Part shown: positions 1,665-60,339 of the stretch, piece after piece | How positions within the stretch are numbered: position 1 is the first letter of the stretch | Layout of the letters: each line of letters starts with the position of its first letter | NCBI GenBank assembly: GCA_032718475.1 | Contig: JAUCBJ010006257.1 | Location: forward strand, 1 to 64,000 | DNA: 64,000 bases | From: Nemertoderma westbladi | Lineage: Eukaryota > Animalia > Xenacoelomorpha | Reading direction: 5' to 3' | Notes under the pieces: model-generated | The model's input: only the letters and a program-made list of their open reading frames with translations | Told to the model about the DNA's origin: nothing | Database searches by the model: none | Made by a program: the position numbers and the translations under genes

Positions 1665-2909
1665 ACACAAATGTCACTTTATTAATTTCTGGTGTCTCCG
1701 TGTATTAATTTTGCACGAGTAACCAGGTTATTTATAAAATCTCAACCCATGCAATACATAAATACTGTATCAATAGGCTTACACAAGGGGCGGGGCTAGA
1801 ATTTTGGTTAACTTTTACAACTAACCAAACCAAAGTTGTTAATGATGGGTAATGAGAAGTGATTTTCGATATATTGTTTATGGAGCAGGTCCTAGGTGAT
1901 ATTATCTGATAAATCTAATTAAATTTCTAAAAGTTCCATTCACCATAAATTTCCGGGTTTCTCAATTTACATGCTGTATTTAAATCTTTATTACAAATCT
2001 TCTCATTTGAGTTTTTATTTATTCTCAATTTATATTTCATCCTAGCAAAATTTTTGAAATCAATTTAATTTGACTCAGATTTTCTTATTCAAAAACTCAA
2101 ACGTTACATTTTACATAGGGCGCAGATAAGTAATGCCGAACTCCCAACAACAGGTGGTTGAAAGTTTGCTAATCACTTCCGCCAACTACCAAGGCATCAA
2201 ATAGCGCCCTGAATAAAGATATCAATGTAAACACAGTATTATTGTTCACTACTAAGAAATCCAATATAATGCAATAACATTGATATCATACAGTAGGTAA
2301 GAGAGGGTAGGCATACATACACACACAATAGGCAGGTTAAATAAAGGAGAATAATCATTGTAATTGCACAAAGTTTAATCATTAACTCATTATGGTAAAT
2401 ATTGGCTTTTAATCTAAGTTTAAGTTTAGACCTTATCATTATTATTACAAGTCTGTAGGTTGACTTTTTGACATGCCCAACTGTATAATTTTATTGTGTG
2501 TAATGTTTACTTTTAATTATTGGAATTTTTATAATATGTTTTCAGACATCATCTGCTTTAATTACTTTTAATTTTTAATATATTTTTAACATTATTTTGC
2601 TTTGAATCAAAATCTATCTTTCAGTATCTCTCTCTTCATAAAATCATTCCAGTTATAGAAATAATGTAGTATGCACAATATTTTGGTAATTTCATAACTA
2701 CGTAGGCCGACCTCTTTATTTTATTATTTTTAGCGGATTTCTCGTTGCAAGCAGATAATTTACTGAATGTTACAATCCCACAATGCCGATGGTTTTAAAA
2801 TTACTTTCACTTTCCTGTTTCGTGTATGCATTGCATTTATGATGTAAATATGAAACTAACGTTTACGTTATTGATAATGGATTAAATGAGATAATTGTGA
2901 TTGTAAATA

Positions 2910-5474
2910 ATGTCGTTCGTGGAAGAAAAACTGAAAGATATTACAGATCCGGTACCGGTACCACAACAGAATGGAAATACAAAATCGAAGAAGCAACAAA
3001 CTGAAACAAAGAAGCCAAAAATTCCCGCTAGGGGGCGTATTATTTCCTTCACAAAGTCACCGGGATGGGAAAGCATTGACCTGGATGCACAGACAACTCG
3101 GCCGGAAGACCGCACTCCAAACACACCGATTCCAAACACAGACCTCATCTTGGCGGCGACACTAGTAAGCGACGCTCTAAACTCAAAACATATCCAATTC
3201 CTCCGCTCGCCGCGAGAGGTCAACCTATACAACTGGTATAACTCTGCGTTGTTGCGGTTCTCTACCTATATTTTTATCGCAATCAATATTTCCTTGACGA
3301 TATTCGAGAAGCCGGCCGTTGAGGGGTGGGAACTACCGTATTGGGCGACTATCCCCGTCGAGTTGATTTGCATGGGCGTCTTTCTTGGGAGACTTCTCCA
3401 CGCTTTCAGCTACAGCGAGCGACGAAGCTTTTTGTCGGACAAAAAGAATGTAATCCTTTTTGTTGCGATCTTATTGATCACCCTGGATATGATCTCGGCG
3501 GGTTCTCTAATCGCTGTCGGTCTGGAACGCTACGCTATCAGATGGTCTCGGGTTTTGAGACCCGTGTTTTTGGTGACTTTCAGCGAAACTCGGCAAATAC
3601 GTAGAGCGTTTCGAAACATCCGGAGGACGCTTCCCGAAGTCGGCACTGTGTTACTACTATTTTTCATAATAATCGCGATATTTAGTCTTTTGGGTATGAA
3701 ATTATATGGGAAGAGGAATTTGAAGAATGCCGAAGGTGGTGCATATTTCGCAAACTATTTCGATATATATTTTGATCTCTTTGTTCTAGTCACGACTGCG
3801 AATAACCCTGATATTATGATGCCAGCGTACAATGATTCTCGATGGAACGCATTGTTTTTCATCTCCTTTTTAGCCATGTGTCTCTACATCTTTATGAATT
3901 TAATCCTGGCTGTTATTTACAACGAATTCCGCAACAATCTTAAGAGCGAAGTGCGTCGAGCCGTGTTTGCGAAACGCCGCAATCTCTCCGAGGTCTACGA
4001 TCTACTCAAAGTTCGAGTGGGTCAAGGATACGGCGTTCCCGAGTGTCGGTGGTTGGAACTGATTCGGGCCACGGATCCGCAACGAACAAGCAACCAGAAT
4101 AACATCGTCTGGAAGGTCCTGGACGATAAACAATTGGGATATATCGAAAGGGCGCGCTTCCTATGGGTAGCCGACGTATTAAACGTTCGCATAACAGAAG
4201 TTGGAAGGAATCCCACGTTCCTGGAATTGACGATTCCAAAGATTTATTTCTCTCCAGCGAGCCAATCATTTCGCAAAATTGTTAAAAGCAAATATTTTAA
4301 ACTGTTTTTTGATCTGTTAATTGTCACTAATGCATTCTTCATAGGAATGGGAAAGGACAACGCTGATTACATATTTCTCGTTTTTTTCAGCCTGGAAATA
4401 ATCTTCAAATTCTACACGAGTGGTTTTATCGTCTTTATGAAATCGAAATGGAATACTTTTGATTTGATAGCCATTGGCGGTGCAGTTGTCGTCGCTATTG
4501 TTGAGCTTTCTCTGGGGAATGGGAAGCAGTCGATAGTAATATTGGACGTGTTGATGGTGCTGCGAGTCTTGCGTTTCGTGCGAATTCTAGGAAGTCATAG
4601 GCGATTTAAAACCGTCCTCTCGACCATCGTGAGTATCATTCCATCGCTCGGGACATACGTCGGCGTCCTTTTCGTCTTCTTTTACGTCTACGCCATCGTC
4701 GGAATGGAAATATTCCACGACCTCATCCGCAAAGAAGATGTGCACAGTTCCAACGCTTCCTGTGGAAACGATAAACTTTTAGGATCACAATTCGCGAAGT
4801 TGAGTTATTGCGCTAATAATTTCAACGATATCGCATCTGCTTTCGTTACGCTGACTGAATTACTTGTTGTCAACCAGTGGCACGTAATCGCTGAAGGATT
4901 TGTCCTCACCACCAATAAGGCCGCGAGAATATATTTCTTTCTGTTTCACTTAACCTGCGTTACTATCGTTCTCAATATACTTGTCGCATTTATCCTTGAA
5001 GCATTTATGTTGGAATACACTCTGTCCCAAGGAAAGTTCGAATCCATGGTTCAAAAGAAGATCACTGAGTTAGGGTTAGGAATTCGTCGCAAGGATACAA
5101 TAGACCCTTTCGACAACGAAGACTCATCAGATATAGAAGTAGAAACTCCGAAGAAACCGTTATCGGAGATGCTACCACCGTCATCGCCATCGGCCTCAAA
5201 TTCGTCGAATTCTAGACGTGTGTCGAGTAGCAAACAGTTGGATAGAAAGAATTCCTTCTTCGGCCTGGTCTTCGTGATGGAGGACCGGGGTATGAGAGAC
5301 CCGGAGGTGCAGTTGCAGAGAATGTTTGAGGTAGATATTGACGCCGAGGACCTGGGGCCCGCTGACATTGAGATGGAAGAAGGCGCAGAGGTGCCCGGAC
5401 CGTTTTCCGCCGGACTCAATAAAACCGTCCACGGATTCAAATTGTTTTCGAATACCGGCGTTGATGAAAAGTAG
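2910..5474 (+). CDS. TPC3: Two-pore channel, TPC3-like (854 aa, single coding exon)
   Basis: Two 6-TM ion-transport domains. Pore motifs TTANNPD and VVNQW (VVNQW is TPC3-type; TPC1/2 have VVNNW). Arg-rich S4 segments (RWSRVLRP; LRVLRFVR) and a basic S4-S5 linker RQIRRAFRNIRRT. Family call is secure; the paralog call is less so. Confidence 0.9.
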   Translation: MSFVEEKLKDITDPVPVPQQNGNTKSKKQQTETKKPKIPARGRIISFTKSPGWESIDLDAQTTRPEDRTPNTPIPNTDLILAATLVSDALNSKHIQFLRSPREVNLYNWYNSALLRFSTYIFIAINISLTIFEKPAVEGWELPYWATIPVELICMGVFLGRLLHAFSYSERRSFLSDKKNVILFVAILLITLDMISAGSLIAVGLERYAIRWSRVLRPVFLVTFSETRQIRRAFRNIRRTLPEVGTVLLLFFIIIAIFSLLGMKLYGKRNLKNAEGGAYFANYFDIYFDLFVLVTTANNPDIMMPAYNDSRWNALFFISFLAMCLYIFMNLILAVIYNEFRNNLKSEVRRAVFAKRRNLSEVYDLLKVRVGQGYGVPECRWLELIRATDPQRTSNQNNIVWKVLDDKQLGYIERARFLWVADVLNVRITEVGRNPTFLELTIPKIYFSPASQSFRKIVKSKYFKLFFDLLIVTNAFFIGMGKDNADYIFLVFFSLEIIFKFYTSGFIVFMKSKWNTFDLIAIGGAVVVAIVELSLGNGKQSIVILDVLMVLRVLRFVRILGSHRRFKTVLSTIVSIIPSLGTYVGVLFVFFYVYAIVGMEIFHDLIRKEDVHSSNASCGNDKLLGSQFAKLSYCANNFNDIASAFVTLTELLVVNQWHVIAEGFVLTTNKAARIYFFLFHLTCVTIVLNILVAFILEAFMLEYTLSQGKFESMVQKKITELGLGIRRKDTIDPFDNEDSSDIEVETPKKPLSEMLPPSSPSASNSSNSRRVSSSKQLDRKNSFFGLVFVMEDRGMRDPEVQLQRMFEVDIDAEDLGPADIEMEEGAEVPGPFSAGLNKTVHGFKLFSNTGVDEK

Positions 5475-30988: not shown

Positions 30989-31282
30989 AAATTCATTCGT
31001 TATTTTATGAAAATAAGTTAGTAGTTGTTATTGGTTTAGTTCTATCAAAGCATGTTTATCGTAGGAAAAGTCCAATCTTTATTCCTTAAAAGCCGACTAT
31101 AAATCAGTTAATTTATATTATTATTATTCCAGTTGCATTAACAGCTCAATACCAATTTGTATATTTACATACTACCGTAGAAGGCATTTTGAAACTGGTC
31201 TACACTCTACTCTGAGACTGATATTCTTTAACAATGAGTAGGGCCTAATCTCGCCAGTCGCGTTAACTGCAAGAACAACGAC

Positions 31283-32329
31283 ATGAATATAACCGGTACT
31301 AAGATTCGCGTCGAAACCGACGAGGTTATAAAGATACTCGCCAAGGACTTCAACCATCATACGTCATCCATGACGTCACTGAACAGCTATGAAGATATTA
31401 ACTACTTGGTTCCCACAGCAACGGGGAAATTTGTGTTGAAAATTTCGAATCCCAGAGACTCTAAGAATGCCAATTTAATGGACGGATTAACTGAAGTTAT
31501 GATTCATTTAAGAGATCGAGGTGTTGTGTGTCCCGTACCGCAACGTTCTACAGGAGGAGATTATATTGTGTACCGCGAATTCCTCGACAAAAACAACCAA
31601 TCACATCAATGCGCAGTTCGGCTTCTCTCTTACGTAGAAGGGGAGATATTATTTAAAGCGTCAGTAATAACAGACAACCTGTTGAAACAGCTGGGCGGAT
31701 TTCTCGCGGATATTGATAAAGGGTTGATGACGTACACTCATCCGGGTGTTACGTCACGCACAGATTTTGATTGGGACATGAGGAATGCGCAACGAATGCG
31801 AAAATATATTGAATATATTCCAGAACCGAATCGAAGGCAACTCATTACTAACGTCTTGGATAGATTCCTGGAAAAGTTTGCAATTCATCAAGTTAATATG
31901 ACGGGGGGGATTATTCACGGCGACTTTAATGGCCATAACATTTTAGTTGATGAAGATTGTAAAATGCGTGGCATTCTAGATTTTGGTCACACAGTAAATT
32001 CCTTCCTAGCATTTGACCTAGGAATCGCTATAATGTATATTTCTAAGGAATTATTTAGCAAGTACGATGAAGAACGCTTTCTGAATGCACCACGTTACTT
32101 CCTCCAATCATATTGCGCGAAGATAACCCTCAACCAATCAGATTTGGAAATGGTTGTCGTAGCAACAATGATGCGTTATGCAATGTCTTTAACTAAAAGC
32201 TGGTACAACCTAACGTTGGATCCGGATAATATTTATTTATTAGACACAGAACGGGGCGGCGGTTGGAAATGCCTCCAATTATTGGCTGATCAGGACGCTG
32301 ATGCGTTACTTCGACGGTGGATGGCGTAG
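31283..32329 (+). CDS. HYKK: Hydroxylysine kinase-like / aminoglycoside phosphotransferase domain protein (348 aa, single exon)
   Basis: APH/choline-kinase fold motifs: LNSYEDINY, FVLKISN, VRLLSYVEG, catalytic IHGDFNGHNILV, metal-binding ILDFG, and the C-terminal DPDNIYLL..GGWKCL typical of metazoan HYKK/AGPHD1. Confidence 0.85.
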   Translation: MNITGTKIRVETDEVIKILAKDFNHHTSSMTSLNSYEDINYLVPTATGKFVLKISNPRDSKNANLMDGLTEVMIHLRDRGVVCPVPQRSTGGDYIVYREFLDKNNQSHQCAVRLLSYVEGEILFKASVITDNLLKQLGGFLADIDKGLMTYTHPGVTSRTDFDWDMRNAQRMRKYIEYIPEPNRRQLITNVLDRFLEKFAIHQVNMTGGIIHGDFNGHNILVDEDCKMRGILDFGHTVNSFLAFDLGIAIMYISKELFSKYDEERFLNAPRYFLQSYCAKITLNQSDLEMVVVATMMRYAMSLTKSWYNLTLDPDNIYLLDTERGGGWKCLQLLADQDADALLRRWMA

Positions 32330-32633
32330 TGAGTGACTACCGTACCGCATTTATTGATAAACAACTAAACAATTATTGCTCGTAAACTGTGTAAACAGTT
32401 AGACATTAATTAATTACATAGGCCCTAATTATTTTTCTAAGACTTTAACTGACTTAAGTTCGAGTCACACAATCACATGAGCTTTTCACTTTCAATTAAA
32501 AGATTTAACACATGGTAGCCTGAGGACGAACTCAGAAAAACAGTCAACTTTCAACATTTATTTATAGGAAGGGATCTAGGGGTCTTTACCTCGAATGATA
32601 AGTTTATTTTACCGAAAATAACTTATCTTTTAT

Positions 32634-32680
32634 TGGCGCAATAGTCTCGGCTTCCACCTCTAGGGCCCAGGTTCGAATCC
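32634..32680 (+). promoter_or_regulatory. Pol III type-2 internal promoter (A box and B box), tRNA-derived
   Basis: A-box-like TGGCGCAATAG (32634-32644) and consensus B box GGTTCGAATCC (32670-32680). Spacing is slightly shorter than in a tRNA. Confidence 0.65.
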
Positions 32681-32683
32681 GTC

Positions 32684-32726
32684 ACCACGCTGATGAGACC
32701 CAGTAAGGTCGAAACGCGTACGTGGT
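32684..32726 (+). ncRNA. Minimal type I hammerhead ribozyme
   Basis: Stem I ACCACG (32684-89) / CGTGGT (32721-26); core CTGATGA (32690-96); stem II GACC-CAGTAA-GGTC (32697-32710); GAAA (32711-14); stem III within palindrome ACGCGT; cleavage triplet GUA, cut after 32720. All invariant core nucleotides are present. Confidence 0.9.
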
Positions 32727-33716
32727 TTGGAGAGATATGAGATATTAATTTCAAGAAAAATTACGCGATTCCTAAATTTGTACACTACCCGGTTAAAAAA
32801 AAAAGTACGCATGTGATGGGATTAGTCCTACAATTGCGCCAATAAAAGATAAGTTATTTTCGGTAAAATAAACTTATCATTCGAGGTAAAGACCCCTAGA
32901 TCCCTTCCTATAAATAAATGTATAATAACAAACACCTCGAAAAATACAGCTTGCTAACACATTGTTACTATCAATAACTTTCAACATGAAACTTTCAAAA
33001 TCCCCTTTAGTCATCTTCTTATTGAAAGTTGGCATTTTTAGTATTGACAACCAATCAAAATTAACAACTATTTACCGACTAAGTATTGTGCAACAATATA
33101 GCTAATTTTTTTTTATGAGATGAAAGTTGAAAGTCTATATGTGAACCAAGTTGATAAATGAGCACTGCACGGATCCGCAGATTACACCCTAAAAAGGTAA
33201 AACAAGTTGACTTCTATAGAGACAATGTTTAATGATAGAAACCGGATACTGATCCGTATCCCTGACCCTGCTCCAGGTAAGGAGTTACAATAATGTAAAA
33301 CGAATTCCTGTTTATGGCTTGATAATAATTTAATTTGTTTTGTAAATAAAGATGATAATAAAGATATAATCTTCAGCTCCAAATAGGCTCTCATCAAGCA
33401 ACACGATAAATCGCGCAAAATTAATCAGACGTCTATATTTTATTATTAATAATTATTATTTAATTAATAATACTTGCAGCCACCAAGTAATGAAAAACGA
33501 TCTTATTTTTAAGGGGAGTAGTACAGGCATCCAATTTTTTTTCAAATTTTTTCCTGTTTCATCTAGAGCAAATTTTTATCAAGATTCCAAATTTGAAAAC
33601 CGTTTAGCAAGATCTGCCTTACCTCTCGAGATATGGCTGTCTGTCCGATTGACTGTCGGTTTGTCCATCAGTATGTCTGTCAGTCAATAAAAACTATCTA
33701 TCTAAAAAAATTACCT

Positions 33717-34079
33717 CTATGGGTTTTCGTGGTCGTTGACTTCATTTCTGATGTCATTCTTCAAATTTGGCCGCGTCGTTTCTGTCTGTATGCCTGTCAG
33801 TCTCTCCGTCAAAATATATACGACAGACTGACTGCCAAACATACAATTTGGAAGCCATCAAATGTTAAATCTGACCATCGAAATGAATTATGCGACCAGG
33901 AAAACCCCTCTAGCTAAACTTTTTACTAGATTGTATGACCTTTTCTTATATTTGACGGACAGATTGTCGGATGGTCAGAAAAAAGACCGACAGACAGACA
34001 TACATACAGACTAACAAAATTTCATTAAAAGTGAAAACTGACCTCAGAAATGAAATCAGCGACCACGAAAACCCCATAG
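33717..34079. repeat. Internal ~43-bp imperfect inverted repeat within the Kolobok-type element
   Basis: CTATGGGTTTTCGTGGTCGTTGACTTCATTTCTGATGTCA vs TGACCTCAGAAATGAAATCAGCGACCACGAAACCCCATAG. Flanking CTGT/ACAG microrepeats are also inverted. Confidence 0.75.
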
Positions 34080-34317
34080 CAAAATTCTTAGCATGGTTTT
34101 GTGCTTTCTTATGGCTAGGTATATATTGACAGTCATTATTTCATAATAACAGACAGTTTTTGCGCGGGAAGGTTCAAATTTTAACTGGATTTTTCTCAAA
34201 ATGAGATTTTAGAATTCTTTCGGTACATTTTTTCAGCTGCCATTTGATTTATATACTTGTAATATTCTCACTAGGATCATTTTTTACCGTAGAATAAGAA
34301 GGTATACCAATTAGTTG

Positions 34318-34860
34318 TGTGAGCGTATTCAATTCCGCCACACTAAACCCCATAAAGTTGGCGTTAAGCAATATTGGAACTACAAGGTTGATTACCAATC
34401 AACCTTGTATCACCCCAATAAGCGGGGCAACAAACCCCAAAGGGAAACACACACAGCGGGGGTCAGAGGTTACACCTCCGGGAGGGAGGGAATGACAGCA
34501 GCAGGGGGAACACTCCCAGGGAGATGAGAGGGTGAGAAGTGAGCTATTAGCCAATGGGGGGAAGGCATCGGCTGAGTAGTGTAATGCGGCCAACCGTGCA
34601 ATATATATTACCAGTCTGTTGTATCATTCCATTCAGTTATCCCAGTACAGTCACGGCAGTACGGTTACAGTTAAGACCGTCACCGCCGTCACCAATCACT
34701 ATCATTTATCCATATACCGGTTAACTGTGCTATCTACTGTTATCTCAGTACAATATATCATTAATAACGACACTGGAACAACAACTCTTTCCATTCACAC
34801 GGCGGGGACGCGTACGTAAACAACACCGGATAAACCGGGATCCTCTCGGATCCCGTCACA
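34318..34860. mobile_element. Solo LTR (543 bp) of an LTR retrotransposon, nested in the DNA transposon
   Basis: Begins TGTGAGCG and ends CGTCACA (TG..CA, short terminal IR). Flanked by 5-bp direct repeat AGTTG at 34313-17 and 34861-65. Higher GC than flanks; TATA-like ATATATATTA near 34601. Confidence 0.8.
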
Positions 34861-37613
34861 AGTTGTTTTATATTATTTACCTATAAGTACCGCATTGTGA
34901 TTTTAATGTTTGTGACACAAATTATTTGGCTATTTTTTTTTAAATTTGGTCTTTAAATAGAAATTCAAAATAAACCAATTGGTCTTCCTGAAAGCCCGTT
35001 AAATTCCGGTTGAATGCAAGAACAGTTGGCCTATAAAGTAATCTAAAGCGTTCCAAAAGTGTACGGAGGCTTAATAGTAGTTTGTATGGATATTGGATAA
35101 AATGCCTGTACTACTCCCCTTAAGTTTGGAGTTATATTATATTTCAACTGTTATCTGAATAACTGATTATTTTTTTTATATTAGAAAAAAATCGAACAAA
35201 TTATAATATATTTAAGGAATATTGATTAATATTAGTGCCTCTGTCTTATAAATACAAATCGTAGCTTAAGTGTCATAAGGAACTAAGTCAGAAATTTCAA
35301 TTGTTCAGGAGAGCCAATAAAATATAATATAGAGATATATATAGGGCCTTTCTGCAGTAAAATATTTCCCAATAGGATTATTGGGTATCACTTTACCACG
35401 CAATAATCATCACATTCCATTGGTTAAAGTGTTCAAAATTCACCAGTTTGGAATTGTATGAAAAAGTAAAATGCGACAAAAATAAACTTAAAGGGCCTTT
35501 ATGACACTCTTAAGCTACGGGGTGATTCTCACCGAAAGTGGCCAAATAGAACTGAAATATTCCTGAAATTTGAACTCCATTGAAACCATACAAAACTATA
35601 TATATTCTGAAAGCATTTTTTAAGGAGAATTCAATGGTGACAATCTCCGAGATGTTAGATAAAATCTTAAAGAAATAATCAAGGTAAAGTATGTGTCCCG
35701 CCTGTAATGGTTTGTCCCTCCATGTAATACGAATTTTTAGGCTGTAAATTGCCCCTGTAATGCGATGTCCCAGCCCTGTAACAATATATTCATCTATTGG
35801 TAGGCCTACCGTGTAATGCGATGTCCCCACGTTGTAACAATATAATAGTCATGTACGTATGTATTTAGTAAATTTTCCATACATAACTTTTTAGTAAGTT
35901 TTCCGAGAAAGATAAGTTTTGTCAAAATTGTGTATTATTTTTAAAAATTAATATAATCGACCACAGAAAAGAAACCAAAATCAGACAATTCCAAACTATT
36001 CGTAAGTTGCTACAATAGCCTAGAAACAAAATTAGTTCGGACAGAGTGAATTCGAAATTCAATAAACTTCGAAATTATATAAAGTTTTCATTCAGACAAA
36101 AATTGGAGAGAATCAATAATTGAGGGGTAAAGTTCAGCATCCGACATATCAAACCCTGTAAAATCCAAAATAGCGAAGTCTTTCACTGCACTTGAATGCT
36201 TCGTACATAATAGTTCGCATGGTGGAAGGCATGGTTTCGTGTTTCCATTTTGTAAATTTAACGGACCATACATAATTAATCTATGTTAGTAGAATGGTAC
36301 GGTGTAAGTTAATTAAAACAGAAAAGTTAAGTCCTGAAATTAAATGACCAAATACAGATGCTTTTCAAATTTCCCACCAATTAGTGTGCCATAGAATCAA
36401 TACTAAATTTCCCATTACAGAGAAGGGACAGTCCCTCACTGTAATGGCATCTCGCACACGTAATTTGTGGGACAATTACAGGGCCATTACATGGAGGGAC
36501 AAATTGATCTTGATATTGAATGTGTAGGGAGCACACTTTAATATTGAAGTTGGAAGTAACAATGGCTGTATTGCCCATGTTTTAATCTGCTATAATAACT
36601 TTATTTTGTTAATTCAAAATGTTACATGCAAATTTATATGCAGAATTAGTAATGGAAAACATGGGACAAAACATCTTGAACATACCGGGTTTGTCACATA
36701 TAGATGTTAAAATCTCGGCAACTACTGGATCGTTTTCAATAAGGTTTTTTTTATTGTGTTCTGTAATAATTGAGGCTGGATTTGCGCATCATCATACCGA
36801 CTGATAACTTCTTATAGCTTCTTTCGAACCTCTATTTAACATTTGGGACATTACAGGGGTCATATTGAAATTTAATAATATTTTATGCTGTTACTGGAAC
36901 GGAAGTATTTGTATCCTCCAAAAACTAATCTGAGAATGTAGGAAAATTTTCAAGCTTCCGAATGATATATAGTTTGTACACCAAGGACCATAATGGGGTC
37001 ATTCTACTGCTCTCTAAATGTTATGCAAATTCTTTAAACAAGTGTTAAAAATGCTATTTTTTAGCGTTTGACAGAGAAATATGGTAATATGCAGGGATTT
37101 TTCAACCCTGAAAACATGATGAGCAGAATTTTCAGGCCAAGTTTCATATATAAAACATTTTACCGTTTAAAAATTCACCAATCTAAACAGAAATTACGTT
37201 CCGGACAATTTCTAAGTCGGTTTTGGCCACTTTTGTTGAGAATGACCCTACGATATGTGGTAATTTAATAAAACTATTTAGCATAAAAAATGGACATTAT
37301 GTTCATGTAACTAAGTAGTAATGGGTAAAGCCTTAATAGTGCATAATTAGTTAAAGCGTCGACCATTTAAGAGGATACAATACTGATTAAATGTAATGCA
37401 TACATAGTACTCTCCTCACTACAACAGTGCCAGACACAAATTATTAAATTAAATTATTTACCGATACGCCACGCAAACAATTTTATATATAAATTATATT
37501 GATAATTACAAAATATGTATATTTATCTAATCGTTATATAGAAAAAAATAAAAAATAAATTAGATTATACGATAGAGTTGGGGTAGGCTGCAGTTTTTAA
37601 TGCACTCTGGCTA

Positions 37614-39062
37614 AACAGTGCTGCCCCATCTAGGGATCGCACCAGGTCCTTCTGGATGGGGATCCCAAACAATGCTGCCCCATCTGGGGATCAAACAAGG
37701 ACTACCTGGATCGGGAGCCCAAACGGTGCTGCCCCATCTAGGGAACGAACCAGTGCCTTCAGGATGGGGATCCCAAACAGTGCTGCCCCATCTAGGGATC
37801 GAACCAGGGCCTTCTGGATGAGGAGCCCAAACGGTGCTGCCCCATCAAGGGATCGAACCAGACGTTCTGGATGAGGAGCCCAAACAGTGCTGCCCCATCT
37901 AGGGATCGAACCAGGGCCTTCTGGATGGGGAGCCCAAACAGTGCTGCCCCATCAAGGGATCGAACCAGACGTTCTGGATGAGGAGCCCAAACAGTGCTGC
38001 CCCATCAAGGGAACGAACCAGTGCCTTCAGGATGGGGATCCCAAATAGTGCTGCCCCATCTAGGGATCGAACCAGGGCCTTCTGGATGGGGAGCCCAAAC
38101 GGTGCTGCCCCATCAAGGGATCGAACCAGACGTTCTGGATGAGGAGCCCACACAGTGCTGCCCCATCTAGGGATCGAACCAGGGCCTTCTGGATGGGGAG
38201 CCCAAACAGTGCTGCCCCATCTAGGGATCGAACCAGGACGTTCTGGATGGGGAACCCAAACAGTACTGCCCCATCTAGGGATCGAACCAGGACGTTCTGG
38301 ATAGGGAAGCCAAACAGTACTGCCCCATCTAGGGATCGAACCAGGGCCTTCTGGATGGGGAGCACAAACAGTGCTGCCACATCTATGGATCGAACCAGGA
38401 CGTTCTGGATGGGGAACCCAAACAGTACTGCCCTATCTAGGGATCGAACCAGGACGTTCTGGATAGGGAAGCCAAACAGTACTGCCCCATCTAGGGATCG
38501 AACCAGGGCCTTCTGGATGGGGAGCCCAAACAGTGCTGTTCCATCTAGGAATCGAATCAGGGCCTTCTGGATGGGGAGTCCAAACTGTGCTACCCCATCT
38601 AGGGATCGAACCAGGACGTTCTGGATGGGGAACCCAAACAGTACTGCCCCATGTGATCGAACCAGGACGTTCTGGATGGGGAACCCAAACAGTACTGCTC
38701 CATCTAGGGATCGAACCAGGGACTTCTGGATGGGGAGCACAAACAGTGCTGCCCCATCTAGGGATCAAACCAGGACTTTCTGGATCGGGAGCCCAAATGG
38801 TGCTGCCCCATCTAGGGATCGAACCAGGGCCTTTTGGATGGGGAGCCCAAACAATGCTGCCCCATCTAAGGATATAACCAGGGCCTTCTGGATGCGGAGT
38901 CCAAACAATGCTGCCCCATCTAGGGATCGAACCAGGGCCTTCTGGATGGGGAGTCCAAACAATGCTGCCCCATCTAGGGATCGAACCAGGGCCTTCTGGA
39001 TGATGAGCCCAAACAGTGCTGCTCCATCTAGGGATCGAACGAGGACCTTCCGATGATGAGTC
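37614..39062 (-). repeat. 54-bp GC-rich tandem repeat (~27 copies), tRNA-3'-half-like on the minus strand
   Basis: Unit AACAGTGCTGCCCCATCTAGGGATCGAACCAGGGCCTTCTGGATGGGGAGCCCA. Its reverse complement contains the B-box/T-loop motif GGTTCGATCCC. The repeat is certain; tRNA origin is inferred. Confidence 0.9.
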
Positions 39063-44086: not shown

Positions 44087-45386
44087 TTACTCCATAATTT
44101 CTGCCGATTGCGCTCCGATCTGCGACTCAGACAACGCATCGATAATATCCAGTAACAATTCCCTCCGCAAAGTTCGAACTTTCGGCAACTTGGCGATCCT
44201 CTTAAAATGGCAAACGATAATATTGAGACAATGATTCTTCATATCGAGAGCGCCTATCGAGTCAGTAGCCTCCAGTATGTGGATCACGTTCCCCGTTGTT
44301 ATATTAGTTTCTAGATTGTGTTTACAGAACGCCTGTAGTCGGTTGTTTGTGAATCCGTAGAAATGTGGCGCCGCAAACAAATAAAGAGAGTCTTCTGGGG
44401 GCATCGAAGCGTCGTCGTAATAAATATACCGCAGGAGGGAGTTAAACGATTGTAGAGTCGGGATTGTGTCGCCTATACTGATGTCTACCTCCCCACTGGA
44501 CGGCATATAGGAGCGAAACAACGCCTCGAAGTAGGCGGATCGCGCCGCTAGAATGGCCTTATGAGCGGGAACCGCTGCCCCGTTGACCCGCAGAACCACG
44601 TCGGTAAAGTCACGACCTACACTGCCGCACAGGAAGGTCTTTAGGTCCAACTCGAGGGAGGGCGTCTTGGTATCGGAGTCGGAGTGGGATTCCGGAGCTG
44701 CGAACAACGGCCCGAAACGATCGCGTCGGATAACCTCCACCAACAACTCCTTCGGGAGACTCTCGAACTCTCGCATCATTATAATTCGGTTGTAGTTGGA
44801 TTCCTTGATGATGAATCGCATACAACGTTCCTTAAGGTTATCCAACTCCAGCTGGTTGCCCTTTACGAGTATGAGCAACACGTTGTCCAGACATATACAG
44901 TTGTCAAGGTACTGTATGCAGAGCATCTCGAGTCCTTTTAGTTGCAGACAGATAGCCAGATGGTAGACGTCGACCATGAGTATAACGGCGGTTGGGGAAC
45001 ATCTGTCCTCGCTGGATACCGCCCCGTTGGTTGCTATGCCGTCCGTGTAGATGTACATTAGCGCCATACGGAAGGGTTTAACTTCTACTTTGTTGGGTAG
45101 AACTACGCGCAGTGGTTCTACTGCAGTAGATGCATCGTTATCGGCGTCAGGACCCAGATGCTTCTCGACGCTACTTCTACGCGCTTTCATCGCTTCTACA
45201 ATCGTGGCTCGCAGGTAATGCGACCGGGCCGCCACCATGGCGACGTGGGCTGTGACCACGGCCCCGTTGGGCCCCAGTACGAACTCGAGGTCTCCCAATT
45301 GACTCCCGTCTAGCAGTTTAGAGAAGTCCGACTTTAGTGTAGATTTGGGGTAGGACGACAACTGGAAACGGTAGATCTCTCCGCTC
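44087..45386 (-). CDS. LZTR1: LZTR1 exon 2 (two BTB-BACK domains, to stop)
   Basis: Acceptor ctgtttag|G at 45387/45386. Spliced read NNIR-SGEIYRFQLSSYPK matches LZTR1. BTB motifs AHVAMVAARS and AHKAILAARSAYFEA; MPPEDSLYLFAAPHFYGFTNNRLQAFCK. Confidence 0.95.
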
Positions 45387-45689
45387 CTAAACAGAATAGC
45401 GTGGTACGGTACAATTACAGAAACGTGGCTAATTAACTAATTAAATTAATTTATTAACAACAAAACATCAGAAGAAAGAAAGTATGGTATTCAATATATC
45501 AATTATTTCATTGTAAATCTTTAATATATATAGAATGATGAATTGTATATTTTTCTTTGATTCTTTCTTGACTAATTTTCGGTCTCTTGATGACAGGATG
45601 GCCTAGATGTAATGAAAGAATGTGTTACCTTGGCTGTTACCGGTAGTTACTTTGGCATATTAAATCCTTTGACCAAATATAAAATGCAA

Positions 45690-45920
45690 GAAAAGCAAAC
45701 AGTCGGCCGAGGCCGGAGGCGACCCGAAGGATCCTCCTTCGATAATTGCTACCCGAGGGTAGGAGTGGCAGTGGGGTGGGGGGGCTAATCCTATCCTTAG
45801 TTTTTGCTTCCAGTAATTCAACTGATCCCCAGTGGATAAAAGGCTGAATGGACCCTGGTGGGAGTCGAACCTACAACCAATAGATTGCAGGCCCGGCGCT
45901 CAACCAACTGAGGTACCCCC
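45690..45920 (-). mobile_element. tRNA-derived SINE in the LZTR1 intron
   Basis: Minus-strand head GGGGGTACCTCAGTTGGTTGAGCGCCGGGCCTGCAATCTATTGGTTGTAGGTTCGACTCCCACCAGGGTCCA (A/B boxes, unpaired acceptor stem). Followed by TTCAGCCTTTTATCC.., a GC-rich hairpin-forming 3' region and a T-rich tail. Confidence 0.75.
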
Positions 45921-46076
45921 AAAAGTCAAATTATTTAAAGAGAAACAAATGATTGCGGCTTGGGGTTATAAAATCATATCCATACAAATTACGTCCCAAC
46001 AACTGAACAACGTTGATTTGAGTTCTTAAACTTCGCGTATCAGAGAGTTTGAATAAACATACCGTATTAAACTTAC

Positions 46077-47101
46077 CTAATGTTGTTCTCCACGGTCCCC
46101 CCGAATATAAACAGCGCGTCGCCAACTACGGCAGCCGAGTGAAACAGCCTACCGTTGGGGGTCTCGCTAACCGAGGACGTCTCGTTAACCGACCAGGAAT
46201 AGGCGTCCAGATCGTAGCGGTACAGCTCGTTGGGATGACTGTTACCGGAACCGCCTCCGAACACGTACAGATACCTACCGTGGTGAACCATCGTGTGTCC
46301 ATACCGCCGCGATGGAGGGGGCCAAAGGTCTGGTAACAGATGGTCCGTAGTTAACTTCATCCACTGTCTGTTGGAGAAACGAAACTGAAACAAATTATTA
46401 GCTATTTTAGCTCCAGATTGGCCGCTGAATACGAAAATAGAATCGCGAGCTACGGTTATAGCGAAGTTACAACAAGAAGGAGGAACCTCACCCCAGTGGT
46501 CCACTCTCTCCCAGCGCCTAGTAGGGGTCGAACTCTTCACCTCTGGATTCAAACTCAACGTCCACATGTCATTTAGTCGCGCGCTTCCATCGTACCCAGC
46601 GAATATCCACATCTTGTCGTCGTAAATGACAGCCCCGTGCGCGGAACGAGCCACCGGGGTCGTTCCTTCTATAACCCGCTCGTTCCACTGCCCCGTCGAG
46701 AACTTATACTCGAAGAGATCGTTCTTATTGCGTAGATTTGAGTTGGAGTAGATGTCGCCGGTGTATCCGCCGAATATAAACATGGATTGTTGGAACACCA
46801 CGGCGGAATGGTGGTACCGCGGTGCCGGTGGGGTACCCGTTGCAAACGCACGTCCCCAAGACAACTCCCGGCAGTCGAATCGCAAGAGATCGTTTAGCAT
46901 TTTGTGTCCGTCGTCCCCCCCGAACACGTACAGGGCTTCCTTGTAGGCGACCATCGTGTGTTTGCTGCGTCTCGCGCCCACAAATTCTGCACACTCCGGC
47001 ATCTGTCGCCATTTATGGATTGTCTCATACGGACCGAAATCAAGCGTGAGACTCTCCGCGCTACCCCAGATAGAGGTTGGCGCAACTTGTCCCGTTTCCA
47101 T
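46077..47101 (-). CDS. LZTR1: LZTR1 exon 1 (Kelch repeats); joined CDS 2325 nt, 774 aa
   Basis: [63 protein letters not shown] are LZTR1 signatures. Donor AG|GTAAGT at 46077/46076; phase-2 intron 45387-46076 restores the frame. Confidence 0.95.
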
Positions 47102-47444
47102 GACAACACCGCAAATTAAAGCACAATTTTTTAGCCTTACCGGTAGACCTACCAGAGTTAATCAGTTAATTGCGATTTGACCCAAACCAGAACATCAGTT
47201 GTTGTTGTTGTTAGGTTGTCCACTGACCATTGCTGTACACTTCAGCCCCCCGCCTGTCAGCAGCGCCAGCACCAACTGCCAACTGTCAGGCAGCCGTCAT
47301 CGTCAGTTTACGGTTATTAAATAAAGCAATAAAAGGATACCAATTAAAGTCATACCAAAATCGATGAAAATTTCACCAAAAAAAAAATATTATATTACAC
47401 CATTTTAAATAATGTGACCAAAAAAAAATTATTTAAAACAAAAA

Positions 47445-55983: not shown

Positions 55984-58900
55984 CTATTTCGGCACACGAT
56001 ACAAGTCGTAAAGAACGTCCAACATTCCTCCCACACTCCACGCCTGTATGGGGCAGGAGAAGGGACACGACTCTCCATTCTTATTGGTCAGTTCGGGCAA
56101 CCCGTGCCAAGGACTCGCCTCCAGTGCGGCCTGTTGCCGCGAAAGGCGCTGCTTCGCGTAGCGGAATGCGGCGTCCAGACACCCGGGATCGGCGGCCTCC
56201 ATGCGAGCCGCGACGGCAAGTTTAGCTCGAAGGAAGAAGGCGGTGAGCCACAACCACTCGGGGCCCTGGTGGTAGTTGAACCCGCGAGCCACATCGGGAT
56301 CAGATGAATCGTCGGACTGGTCGTAGTACGGATGGTACTTCCAGTCCCCGGGGTCCAGACTCCGCATTCCGAGAGGAGCCGCCAGCTTCTCTTCCGCGAG
56401 CCCGAGCGCCCGCCACGCGCGGCTCGCCGTGAACATCTCGGGCCCGGTCACCATAGCGACGAGGAAGTTGGGCCGCAGTCGGTGGTCGTCCCACGGACGG
56501 GAGGAGCCAACCGAGTCGCGGTAGATCCCGCGGAGGTTGGAGTACGGCTCCAACGTACCCGTCGGATCCACCCAGAACAGCGGCTCGAAACTCCGATCGA
56601 TGAGCGCGGCCCATTGAGCGAATGTAACCTCCTCCGCGCCGACCTTTATCCCGGGGCGCGGATACCTCCCGTCGCCATGACAACCGGCCAACCAACCCAC
56701 GACCCCGCGACACAACCCGACCAGCTCGACCGCCGTCCCATCCCGCGGCGTCGCCGGAACCCCGCGGGTCCCCGCCCGTTCGCTCTCGCCCATTTTATCC
56801 ATCCAGGTTCCGCAATTGTGTTCGTTCCCCCCGTAGGGGAACCCAGTGGCCCAATCGATCCCGGCTGTCACTACGAATCCCTCCCACTTCATGTGAGCGT
56901 CGATCCCTGATCCCGCCCCCCGTTCGATAAACTCGATCCCGTTCCCGTGGCTCTCCAACCCGCGCTGCATCACCTCGTACAGAAACTCCTCCTTATTCTC
57001 TTCGTCTTCCCACATCGAAACAACGTGGGACTTCAATATCTCGAAGCCGCTTGGGGCCATCTCGCAGTAATCTCTGATGCAGTACAACCACCACCAGATG
57101 GCGTCCCTACAGTTATACCGAGCGTGGGTCCCGGCCCCGAGGAGATTCGGTATCAAACCGTGTCGCATAGTCCCTCCGTAGGCGAGGATGAGATCCCGAG
57201 CCTCGTCCCACCGACCCGTGACCAGCAGCAGACCGCGGGCCGCTATGAACGTGTCGCGACCCCAGTTACGCATAATACCGGAAGCGAAGTGAGGCAGACC
57301 AGCGGCCATGGAGGGGAGACGTTGTTCGAGGAGACCAGAAGTCGGGTTCAATCGGGTGGGAAGTCGAGGTAGACTGGAGGAAACCGCGGGGAGGGGAGCC
57401 GAATCAACCACTCCCATCAGCTGGACGCTCCCGAGGGAGAGCTCCTTAACAAAGGTCGAACCTTTCTTAACGAAATCGCTCATATTCGAGTACATAACGT
57501 CGAGGATGTTTATGAAAGCGCCGGTGACTATAGCATCGAAGTAACACGGGATGAGGTAGCGAGGAAGGAGTTTAAGTCGGTCGAATACGTTGGCGAACCA
57601 GGCGCCGATTGCCTGAGTGCGAGGGTTCATTGACAATCGGTTGGATATGTAGCCGGGCATCCAGTCACCGTCGCGGAGATTGTCGCAGAACGGATGGCCG
57701 AGATCGTTACCGATACGGAGCTGGGAGAGGACCGACACGAACCCGAAGAGGCCGCAGTACGGGAGGTCCCCGTGTCGCGGCACGTTGTAGGCGGAGATCC
57801 CGTTACCGTCCGAGAGCTCCTCGTCGCTGCAACGGTAGAGAACGCGGTTCAACTCAGACAGACTGAGCTCCCGGACGAGGTTGACAAAGTCGGCGGGGCG
57901 GAGGTCCTGCGGGGAGTCGGCCACGGCTGACCGGTAACCGAAGCGGACCAGTTCGTTACGGATCGACTGGACGGCGGACGCCGAGGTCGGGGCTAGGGAA
58001 ACCTTGAGGACGAAAACCGAACCCGGAGGGAAGTCGGTGAACTCAAGTTCCTGCACGGCCCCATCCGTTTCCGCCTTCACCTCGAACATCCCGCTGTCGG
58101 AAACCGCCACGTTATCCCTAATTGCCAACCGATACCCCGCCAGTCCGTTTATATACGAGGCATCGCGACGGTACGACGGGGCGTACTTCCTCGTCTCGAG
58201 TTTGGCCTCGAGAAGGACTTTATCGACGCGCCCCGGGACGCAGAGAGATGGAACGTTGGTCGGGGTGTCTGGGGGCTGCGTGAACGAGGTGCGGGCCACC
58301 AGAACCACGGAGTGGTGCAGCGACGGACAATGTCGCGTCACCGCCACAATGTCCGCATCTACTTGGTCAACATAAACCTCGTTGAACCCGCGAGTAGACA
58401 ACATCTGGTGTAGGTGGTTCAAGGCTTTCTTCCCCTTTAGGATTCCGTTGTTTATATTAACTACCCCCGGCGTCTCCGCCCCGGAGTTCTTCCCTCCCAT
58501 AACCGCCTCTCCTTCCCAGTTGTTGTACATCCGATTCTCGGTAACCACGTGGATCTGATGTGGAACCAACTCGTCGTAGCCCCGGTTGCTCCCGGTCGAG
58601 CAGCAGCCCATTGCGACGATAGCCGCCGTCGGCAAGGCGTCGTAAACGGAACGGCGTGCGATCACCGCCGGGTTGTCGTGCGTCTGGTCCATAAACACGG
58701 CGTGGGCCACGGACGGTACGAGGGGCCGCACGCACGGCTGTATGAAGGAGCCGACCGGATCGCCACCGTACCGGTGAACCAGTCGGCCTTCCTCGTGGCT
58801 GTCCGGCGCCGACATCGCCTCCCGGATCAGCGAGTTGATCCCGAGTCGATTCACGAAAACGTTGTCCACGTCGGAGGAGCCGGTGAAGAGTTCCGCAACG

Positions 58901-59979
58901 ACGTAGAGATCGGGGTTGACCGCCCGACCGCAGTCCAGCAGCCACGATGCGAAGTCCAACGGCGTGCTGTGGCAGTTGTCCAGACGGATTCCGTCGAAGG
59001 CCCCCGCGGTCAGCTCCATGTAGCGCCGCATCCGGTCCCACAGAGCGGGACAGTCGTCCCGCGATGTCCCGTACCTCAGCTTTATGCTGTCCCCCCAGGC
59101 GATCAGCTCGCGCCGCAGGTAGACCAGCCCCGGTGCCGCGGCGAAGTTCCGCAGCGGATCGTCGTTCATGACCCACCCGTTGTGAGCCATAACGAGCGCG
59201 GCTCGGCTCGGCTCCCTCGCCATGCGTTCCTCCTCATCCACCGACGTCGCCTCCCATCTGTGGTAGAAGTACGGCGTCGCTATTGGGTGTTGCTTGGAGA
59301 CGGGCCCGCATTTGGGGCCCCCATCCTGCACGTAGAAGTATTGGGTAGACCGGGCCACACACTCAACCGCCTGCAGCAGATGGTCCCAAACATCGGTTTC
59401 CTTGGCAATGTTAAGTGCATTCAGATGCTCTTTAAACGCATTCACGGATAACTTCTGGCGCTCAGTCTCCGAAATGTTCTCCCCTCTGGAAATGTTAAAC
59501 GCCCTGAGTGCGAGCTCTAAATCCACAGTGCATGAGAGTCGCATGTACTGGGGGTCCTGCACAATGGTCACTGCGTCGGCAGACTCAGCTGGTGTACTCG
59601 CACCCCCCAGCTGAGACACTCGGCTAGCGAATTCCTTGACAGAACTCTCCACGTTCACCTGGTAGAACTGCGACAGTTTGTACGTCGGTATCACGACGTC
59701 TCTCAGGGCCGCTTGGAGCGCGGAGATGTGGTCCGCGCTGGTTATGTTGGACGGGACGTTGCGGAACTCCCACTGGCCTTGGGAGACCTCGACCCCGAAA
59801 TGGTAGAGGATGCGGTCGAGGAGGTAGGCGGGTCGGAGGTAGGGGGAGTTGGCGAGGTTGAATGCGCACTGGGGTTCGGCGGTGATCCAAGCCGAGTCGT
59901 TGGAGGTGTGGTTGAGAACCACGTCGCAGATGGAGAGGACACCGTGATCGCGTCGCAGTCGATCTAGGAACGAAGTGAC
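55984..59979 (-). CDS. AGL: Glycogen debranching enzyme (4-alpha-glucanotransferase/amylo-1,6-glucosidase), terminal exon, 5'-partial
   Basis: GH13 motifs DVVLNHT, GIRLDNCHSTP, VVAELFTGS, DQTHDN; glucosidase-domain motifs MRNWGRDTFI, TWMDKMGES, NYHQGPEW, GLPELTN, QAWS. Acceptor tttttgtttcag|GTC at 59980/59979 (phase 0). The ORF-track start MFLFQ is intronic. Roughly the first 180 aa must lie in exon(s) beyond the window. Confidence 0.95.
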   Translation of the reverse strand, partial: VTSFLDRLRRDHGVLSICDVVLNHTSNDSAWITAEPQCAFNLANSPYLRPAYLLDRILYHFGVEVSQGQWEFRNVPSNITSADHISALQAALRDVVIPTYKLSQFYQVNVESSVKEFASRVSQLGGASTPAESADAVTIVQDPQYMRLSCTVDLELALRAFNISRGENISETERQKLSVNAFKEHLNALNIAKETDVWDHLLQAVECVARSTQYFYVQDGGPKCGPVSKQHPIATPYFYHRWEATSVDEEERMAREPSRAALVMAHNGWVMNDDPLRNFAAAPGLVYLRRELIAWGDSIKLRYGTSRDDCPALWDRMRRYMELTAGAFDGIRLDNCHSTPLDFASWLLDCGRAVNPDLYVVAELFTGSSDVDNVFVNRLGINSLIREAMSAPDSHEEGRLVHRYGGDPVGSFIQPCVRPLVPSVAHAVFMDQTHDNPAVIARRSVYDALPTAAIVAMGCCSTGSNRGYDELVPHQIHVVTENRMYNNWEGEAVMGGKNSGAETPGVVNINNGILKGKKALNHLHQMLSTRGFNEVYVDQVDADIVAVTRHCPSLHHSVVLVARTSFTQPPDTPTNVPSLCVPGRVDKVLLEAKLETRKYAPSYRRDASYINGLAGYRLAIRDNVAVSDSGMFEVKAETDGAVQELEFTDFPPGSVFVLKVSLAPTSASAVQSIRNELVRFGYRSAVADSPQDLRPADFVNLVRELSLSELNRVLYRCSDEELSDGNGISAYNVPRHGDLPYCGLFGFVSVLSQLRIGNDLGHPFCDNLRDGDWMPGYISNRLSMNPRTQAIGAWFANVFDRLKLLPRYLIPCYFDAIVTGAFINILDVMYSNMSDFVKKGSTFVKELSLGSVQLMGVVDSAPLPAVSSSLPRLPTRLNPTSGLLEQRLPSMAAGLPHFASGIMRNWGRDTFIAARGLLLVTGRWDEARDLILAYGGTMRHGLIPNLLGAGTHARYNCRDAIWWWLYCIRDYCEMAPSGFEILKSHVVSMWEDEENKEEFLYEVMQRGLESHGNGIEFIERGAGSGIDAHMKWEGFVVTAGIDWATGFPYGGNEHNCGTWMDKMGESERAGTRGVPATPRDGTAVELVGLCRGVVGWLAGCHGDGRYPRPGIKVGAEEVTFAQWAALIDRSFEPLFWVDPTGTLEPYSNLRGIYRDSVGSSRPWDDHRLRPNFLVAMVTGPEMFTASRAWRALGLAEEKLAAPLGMRSLDPGDWKYHPYYDQSDDSSDPDVARGFNYHQGPEWLWLTAFFLRAKLAVAARMEAADPGCLDAAFRYAKQRLSRQQAALEASPWHGLPELTNKNGESCPFSCPIQAWSVGGMLDVLYDLYRVPK

Positions 59980-60339
59980 CTGAAACAAAAACATACTTGT
60001 GAGGATCCAGACAACCCGTTATTACAACACACTGCAACAAACGAAGAAATAAGTTTCAACAATAATTATTCCCTATTATTGCATTTATTTCCTAATGGTA
60101 GTATTTCATTCCAGTTGCTATATTCCCTATTGCTATAACTACGTATCGCTTTTATTTCACATTGCTATTATTGTTTCCTTCCAGTTGTCAATTTCTTATT
60201 GCTATTGTTTTTCTGTATAGGAAATATCACTGCCAATAGGAAATAAAAGCATAATAATTCCATAATTATAATAGCATAATAATTTCACATCGCTATTATT
60301 TCCTAAATTGCTAATACTTCCTATTGGTATCAGGGTATT

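Follow-up and report, generated by a model that had tools for sequence, protein, structure and literature searches.

A very-high-copy tRNA-promoter and hammerhead element with a Penelope-like insertion anatomy

In the Sm-alpha repeats, a Pol III promoter is followed by a hammerhead ribozyme, the whole being arranged in tandem, as described in PMC6765202 and PMC8490949. Non-LTR retrozymes have been proposed to be passengers of Penelope-like elements (PLEs) (PMC7229834; bioRxiv 10.64898/2026.07.22.740005), and one report raises the possibility that they form a new type of SINE dependent on PLEs (PMC8969392). Their mobilisation mechanism is presented as remaining to be worked out (bioRxiv 10.64898/2026.07.22.740005), and arguments about which enzyme mobilises animal retrozymes still draw on co-occurrence and on similarity to pseudo-LTRs (pLTRs). 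As regards the ribozyme, a dimeric double hammerhead has been described for canonical animal hammerheads (PMC4209133).

The insertions of Penelope, as described in PMC3846280 and PMC8557442, consist of a direct repeat with an adjoining inverted, 5’-truncated copy (the pLTR arrangement), a target-site duplication (TSD) of 8–10 bp and a tail of 30–40 bp found at one end only. A purified PLE protein was reported to cut and extend both strands of AT-rich DNA and to initiate at two sites within the RNA, one on either side of the tail, a signature called ‘unique to PLEs’. The main substrate of this protein was uncleaved RNA, and the PLE tested initiated without homology to the target (PMC11167929).

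The window analysed here, the whole 64-kb stretch of DNA, contains one copy of an element that can be compared with these systems. The insertion comprises 418 bp (32558–32975; its features lie on the plus strand unless stated otherwise) and is flanked by a 12-bp TSD, as defined by the window sequence together with contigs carrying the empty site. The left copy of the TSD (32546–32557, 75% A+T) and the right copy (32976–32987) are the only occurrences of this 12-mer in the window. All three same-species DNA runs compared over 32200–33300 (X1, X2 and X4, three samples from three studies) hold the empty site, in contigs that pass directly from 32545 to 32976, 12 letters being compatible with either side, at single-copy depth (31, 27 and 44, respectively). 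The locus is polymorphic, filled in this assembly and empty in these three samples, and 32558–32975 is a recent insertion of one 5’-truncated copy of a very-high-copy, non-coding unit of about 411 nt. The initial annotation had set the boundaries at 32554 and 32921, which the 12-mer copies now correct. As in retrozymes, the TSD is longer than 4 bp and PBS, PPT and LTR are all absent.

The element is present in six public runs (X1–X6), and its other copies were read through the contigs of those runs, that is, through the best-supported rows, which prove presence and not absence. X1, X2, X3, X4 and X6 belong to one organism (X2, X3 and X6 being one sample), and X5, with a single contig, to a second organism. 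The summed contig depth inside the element is 1e5–9e5 against 27–52 on the flanks in X1, X2 and X3, and up to 8e3 against a flank of 44 (roughly 100–200-fold) in X4; this depth is no copy number and is taken to indicate no more than that the copies number from hundreds to many thousands. It is roughly level along the unit, and a depth step near the ribozyme cut site was set aside as too noisy. Element contigs numbered 0 in X7, a run from another organism, where contigs likewise give no proof of absence, and an exact 23-nt probe for relatives found 0 matches in prokaryote genomes and 0 in viral contigs. A B-box-plus-core pattern gave 37 matches in metagenome contigs, none of which was a plausible hammerhead on inspection (stem II had 0–2 bp in 36 of the 37).

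Contigs that extend upstream of 32642 agree on a head which is missing from the copy in the window (14 contigs with an agreement of 0.91 in X2, and 9 with an agreement of 1.0 in X3). This family head holds a canonical A box, TGGCCTAGTGG, with a gap of 31 nt to the B box, the normal gap being 30–40 bp according to PMC7279448. The two boxes of the family are thus spaced as in a tRNA and lie close to its 5’ end, as in tRNA-derived SINEs, and this copy is without its A box. What it retains is the 3’ part of the tRNA-like head (32643–32680), with an anticodon-loop-like 7-mer at 32651–32657 and the B box at 32670–32680, which had been annotated correctly and is the sole one in the window; about 81 nt, including the true A box, are missing upstream. 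Counted back from the B box, the loop at tRNA positions 32–38 reads CTTCCAC, which in standard numbering makes it likely that the family head derives from tRNA-Gly(TCC). Neither ARAGORN nor Rfam calls a tRNA in the truncated head of this copy. The A box formerly placed at 32634–32644 is a chimera over the inversion junction and not that of the family: the inverted arm supplies 9 of its 11 nt, 25 nt separate it from the B box and the family A box differs. The inversion destroyed the A box of this copy, which, having no proper A box, is likely dead as a source. The intact unit, with its A and B boxes, is likely transcribed by Pol III.

The length of the unit is given by the X5 contig, which runs through 32889–32977, then 81 other letters, then 32642–32913, and is closed by a 30-nt overlap of its ends with a period of 411. 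Because X5 bears the label of another organism and can only be guessed to be RNA, this cycle, which may be tandem DNA, shows unit length and head-to-tail joining rather than circular RNA, and X5 is not counted as evidence of expression. One X3 contig (depth 167) joins 32978 back to 32647. The unit is seen without a left arm in the X5 contig and in X6 record 10. With a period of 411, a type I hammerhead and a longest frame of 53 codons, it falls within the 150–450 bp of non-coding retrozymes.

The ribozyme is a canonical type I hammerhead (32678–32731), as had been claimed, complete in stems, core, GAAA and GUA triplet. It comprises a stem I of 6 bp with an extension (32684–32689 with 32721–32726), a CUGANGA core (32690–32696), a stem II of 4 bp (32697–32700 with 32707–32710), GAAA at 32711–32714 and a palindromic ACGCGT stem III, so that CUGANGA, GAAA and the UH core occur together with stems I and II as in type I; the cut is predicted after A32720. 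The Rfam comparison suggested earlier yields a match to HH9 with an E of 0.0046, its 28.7 bits lying below the gathering score of 52. A hammerhead descriptor matches once in the window and once in 600 shuffled strands of 7.6 kb, the shuffled strands giving 0 matches with a B box upstream, a rarity that indicates that the motif is more than chance. The self-complementary stem III cannot close in the monomer in the energy model, and a two-copy co-fold gives a strand-swapped double hammerhead at -39.9 kcal/mol, so the ribozyme is predicted to work as a dimer. The family copies are too uniform to show stem covariation. At 32682, where this copy has T, about 100% of the depth has A in all six runs holding the element, and with A at this position stem I, by inspection, has 11 bp with one bulged C. 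T32682 being private to this copy, the GTC/TT internal loop that had been drawn in stem I is no family trait, and the proposed docking of this loop with loop II rests on that private change. A hairpin of 32711–32720 with 32762–32771, which reduces the probability of stem I to 0.01, was considered as a designed ‘anti-hammerhead’ switch and rejected, as stem I is also suppressed when the 3’ part is shuffled, in 44 of 200 cases.

Among the 1502 contigs of X3, 10 substitutions reach at least 1% of the depth, namely T32682A (about 100%) and nine within 32755–32945. None besides T32682A falls in the boxes or the ribozyme, core included. The shortage of common variants in 32643–32754 (0 of 9 sites, P about 0.025, for a region picked post hoc) gives only a hint of constraint. 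The non-coding body (32732–32921) contains an A10 run (32795–32804), which lacks 5 nt in roughly half of the depth, three AATAAA signals and a weak hairpin (32849–32878), and ends near the first recurrent end at 32921. The sole T4 run of the body (32857–32860) sits in this hairpin and, by its sequence, could stop Pol III early. A diverged copy, with 33 differences in 175 nt, was found at one locus in X1 (record 5) and X2 (record 12), and its match starts exactly at 32721, the first base past the predicted cut. X4 furthermore holds contigs of 600–1914 nt (records 16, 19 and 21), at 9–24 times the flank depth, with element pieces about 90% alike beside other sequence, which may represent an old copy lodged in a different repeat or else a longer relative. 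Those of 1.8–1.9 kb were considered as an autonomous partner and set aside; the hammerhead-bearing one has a broken core.

The left part of the insertion is an inverted copy (32558–32642, minus strand) of 32833–32917, placed head-to-head with the direct copy and devoid of the 54-nt tail (32922–32975, 67% A+C), which is present at the direct end only and leads to the second recurrent end at 32975–32977. The inverted match is perfect over 89 bp (32554–32642 with 32833–32921), as the initial annotation had stated, and the AT hairpins that it gave to each arm amount to one weak hairpin (-3.8 kcal/mol), found twice because the left arm is a copy of the right. At this locus, the inversion arose as a by-product of the insertion. 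Where the arm meets the target, at the outer junction, the last 4 nt of the left TSD copy are also the reverse complement of 32918–32921. At the inner junction, TTGTAG, the 6 nt that close the family head at 32644, equals the predicted continuation of the inverted strand, which suggests a join at this match with 3 nt lost.

Similar ends recur in other copies. Four of the 15 joints listed, out of 27 in X3, switch strand, two of them at 32644–32645 with 0 shared letters reported. X6 record 11 is a second inverted-plus-direct insertion, in which inverted 32868–32927 is joined to direct 32946–32975. Loose ends lie behind 32913 in 16, 23 and 22 contigs, and behind 32977, with A-rich starts, in 23, 24 and 23 contigs (X1, X2 and X3, respectively); these counts carry no orientation. 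Past 32913, the letters of the element continue to about 32925, after which agreement drops to about 0.5. The inverted 5’ copy in head-to-head position and the one-ended tail with two recurrent ends, near 32921 and 32977, are both traits of PLE insertions. The search for an AC-rich stem-loop at the start sites gave no stable fold in the 54-nt tail (z of +0.6 and +0.8) despite its 67% A+C.

The best reading of this locus is that of a non-autonomous, Sm-alpha-like retrozyme, and the reverse transcriptase and endonuclease of a PLE are the probable agents of its movement, since an inverted end without tail, a direct end with tail and a TSD make up the published PLE signature. The locus shows this pattern in its AT-rich TSD, its direct end at 32975, its inverted end at 32921 and the 54-nt tail between the two. 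The PLE protein would nick the two strands of an AT-rich target at positions 12 nt from each other; cDNA would be primed at RNA position 32975 from one nick and at 32921 from the other. The second cDNA, started at 32921, would become the inverted arm, and the two cDNAs would join near the TTGTAG match between the head and the inverted strand, a join which here would lose 3 nt and remove the true A box. The template RNA would be uncleaved, multimeric or circular, because sequence from both sides of the cut site was inserted. Cutting by the ribozyme would require a dimer, such as a tandem transcript provides, and would release unit-length RNA. Transcription by Pol III, self-cleavage, a circular RNA and a partner enzyme all belong to this inferred scheme. 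An autonomous PLE, with a reverse transcriptase plus GIY-YIG frame, was not found in the 64-kb window, and the 15 codons after the ribozyme are no remnant of a PLE reading frame.

Certain features count against a PLE. The tail has 54 nt, compared with the 30–40 reported, and lacks a stem-loop fold; the hammerhead is canonical and not of the minimal PLE type; the T4 run may stop Pol III early; and the 0 shared letters at the two X3 joints at 32644–32645 leave the 6-nt match at the inner junction a deduced one. Other such features would also suit a tRNA-derived SINE with a hammerhead, of the Sm-alpha type, moved by a LINE, with the inversion resulting from LINE twin priming. The A and B boxes at tRNA spacing and the 12-bp TSD agree with this reading, as does the 4-nt target match at the outer junction, whereas the PLE tested started without homology. 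The A-rich starts of the loose ends behind 32977 point the same way, and Sm-alpha is described as SINE-like in PMC6765202. In LINE twin priming, the inverted piece originates upstream of the direct piece. The pieces of X6 record 11 do not overlap and so fit twin priming too, but at the present locus the inverted piece duplicates 85 nt that are also in the direct piece. Moreover, LINEs are not characterised by a second fixed end that occurs about as often as the 3’ end, and the locus has neither a poly(A) nor a simple-repeat tail, so that movement by a LINE seems rather unlikely.

Mobilisation by PLE machinery would take a different form if the unit were the pLTR of an autonomous PLE with its own tRNA-derived promoter, the copy in the window then being a truncated PLE end and not a member of a separate non-autonomous family. 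The anatomy equals that of an inverted plus a direct pLTR (PMC3846280), Xenopus retrozymes are reported to match pLTRs (bioRxiv 10.64898/2026.07.22.740005), and the 600–1914-nt contigs of X4 could be pieces of such an element. Nevertheless, the closed contig of 411 nt leaves no room for a frame, no reading-frame remnant is found, the depth is roughly level along the unit and the long X4 contig with a hammerhead (record 16) has three changes in the core, which together make this reading distinctly improbable. If the 89-bp arms were the terminal inverted repeats of a MITE or foldback DNA transposon that had captured the SINE-ribozyme core, or if the nesting were due to chance, the perfect inverted match would be accounted for, a reading close to the initial annotation, in which the inverted arms packaged the core as a foldback. 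Inverted repeats do not stand at both termini directly inside the TSD. The empty site shows that the insertion runs on to 32975, so the right arm is internal and not an element end; and terminal inverted repeats are ruled out by the 54 nt of element that follow the right arm and by the 4 nt of the left arm that are part of the TSD. Other contigs run continuously from head to arm to tail without a left arm, and this reading is barely credible. The element is neither an autonomous PLE nor a MITE. Thus, the earlier proposal of a young, non-autonomous element with a tRNA promoter and a hammerhead, linked to Sm-alpha, retrozymes and PLEs, holds, and its foldback component does not, the inversion having come from insertion.

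With regard to the surroundings, a host frame of the APH phosphotransferase family (31238–32329), which we take to be hydroxylysine-kinase-like, ends, on the same (plus) strand, 229 nt before the insertion begins. If the 3’ UTR of this kinase reaches the insertion, its mRNA would gain the 89-bp double-stranded stem and the three AATAAA signals. Long uninterrupted frames of conserved animal genes lie at 2907–5474, 31238–32329, 44087–47161 and 55984–60018 (ion channel, APH kinase, LZTR1-like in two frames and, presumably, glycogen-debranching-like), and a Kelch/BTB protein in the window has its best matches among animal LZTR1-like proteins (57–68% identity), which places the window in an animal genome. 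These long single frames between large satellites are those of an intron-poor, satellite-rich genome. Just downstream of the insertion, 33162–33272 has a contig depth of up to 1e3–9e3 with many differences and is a piece of another repeat family. The stretch 33509–35123, with a perfect 22-bp inverted pair 1.6 kb apart and a nested 48-bp inverted pair (33721–33768 and 34027–34074), is likely a DNA transposon or MITE. Further on, a tandem array of 54 bp (37613–39050, 26.7 units) bears a minus-strand B-box-like motif in 19 units and an ARAGORN tRNA-Gly at 38912–38982; it has no hammerhead core, matches the head of the element weakly and locally, and is probably a separate tRNA- or SINE-derived satellite.

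Every part of the element has precedent and no new principle is involved. This recent insertion, for which empty site, TSD, inverted arm and tail are all known, nevertheless supplies a kind of footprint that was previously missing, and it names two candidate start positions, 32921 and 32975, that are open to tests with purified PLE protein. Published work showing a tRNA-headed element with PLE insertion footprints was not found in the open literature searched, and the family may be catalogued in Repbase, Dfam or subscription journals. If the element is indeed moved by a PLE, Pol III-promoter parasites would extend from LINE and LTR partners to PLEs. The chances appear evenly balanced that it represents a class of tRNA-derived, Pol III-driven SINEs whose partner is a PLE and not a LINE, with thousands of active copies, two fixed starts of reverse transcription 54 nt apart and a dimer-gated ribozyme switching between full-length template and circular RNA. 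Were this so, Sm-alpha would be the second member of the class, and the 411-nt RNA a minimal trans-substrate for PLE integration.

Among the systems described, endonuclease-bearing Penelope/Poseidon PLEs share with this element a head-to-head inverted end, a one-ended tail, a TSD, an AT-rich target, a hammerhead and 5’ truncation (PMC3846280, PMC8557442, PMC11167929). Unlike these PLEs as described there, the element has no reverse transcriptase/GIY-YIG frame and has a 54-nt tail, and it carries a tRNA-like promoter and a canonical hammerhead where they have a Pol II-type pLTR promoter and a minimal one. Helenus, Cassandra and Ajax also have a Pol III promoter derived from a small RNA and are non-autonomous and LINE-independent; these are nonetheless LTR elements with a PBS and short TSDs, and neither a ribozyme nor Penelope is mentioned in the relevant passages of PMC10886601. 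The metazoan non-LTR retrozymes are similar in being non-coding, with a canonical type I hammerhead, less than 50% GC and a TSD of more than 4 bp, and in their proposed mobilisation by PLEs; they occur as monomers and repeats, as the present unit may do (PMC7229834; bioRxiv 10.64898/2026.07.22.740005). The passages of that report on these elements hold no data on a promoter and none under ‘SINE’ or ‘inverted’, and their link to PLEs comes from co-occurrence and pLTR similarity, whereas that of the present element comes from the anatomy of its insertion (PMC7229834). Circular RNA is abundant in retrozymes and is only deduced here. The Sm-alpha and Sj-alpha repeats of Schistosoma place a type I hammerhead behind a Pol III-type promoter, as this element does, in units of a few hundred nt; they are both tandem and dispersed, as the present units may be, and in Sm-alpha, as here, the monomer released by cleavage would carry the promoter at its 3’ end. 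They differ, in a comparison made by description, in their animal host, and in that PMC6765202 and PMC8490949, in the parts that concern Sm-alpha, give no partner enzyme or PLE-type signature for it. Taken together, the element has the testable features of a retrozyme, with an insertion that is PLE-like and a build that is Sm-alpha-like.
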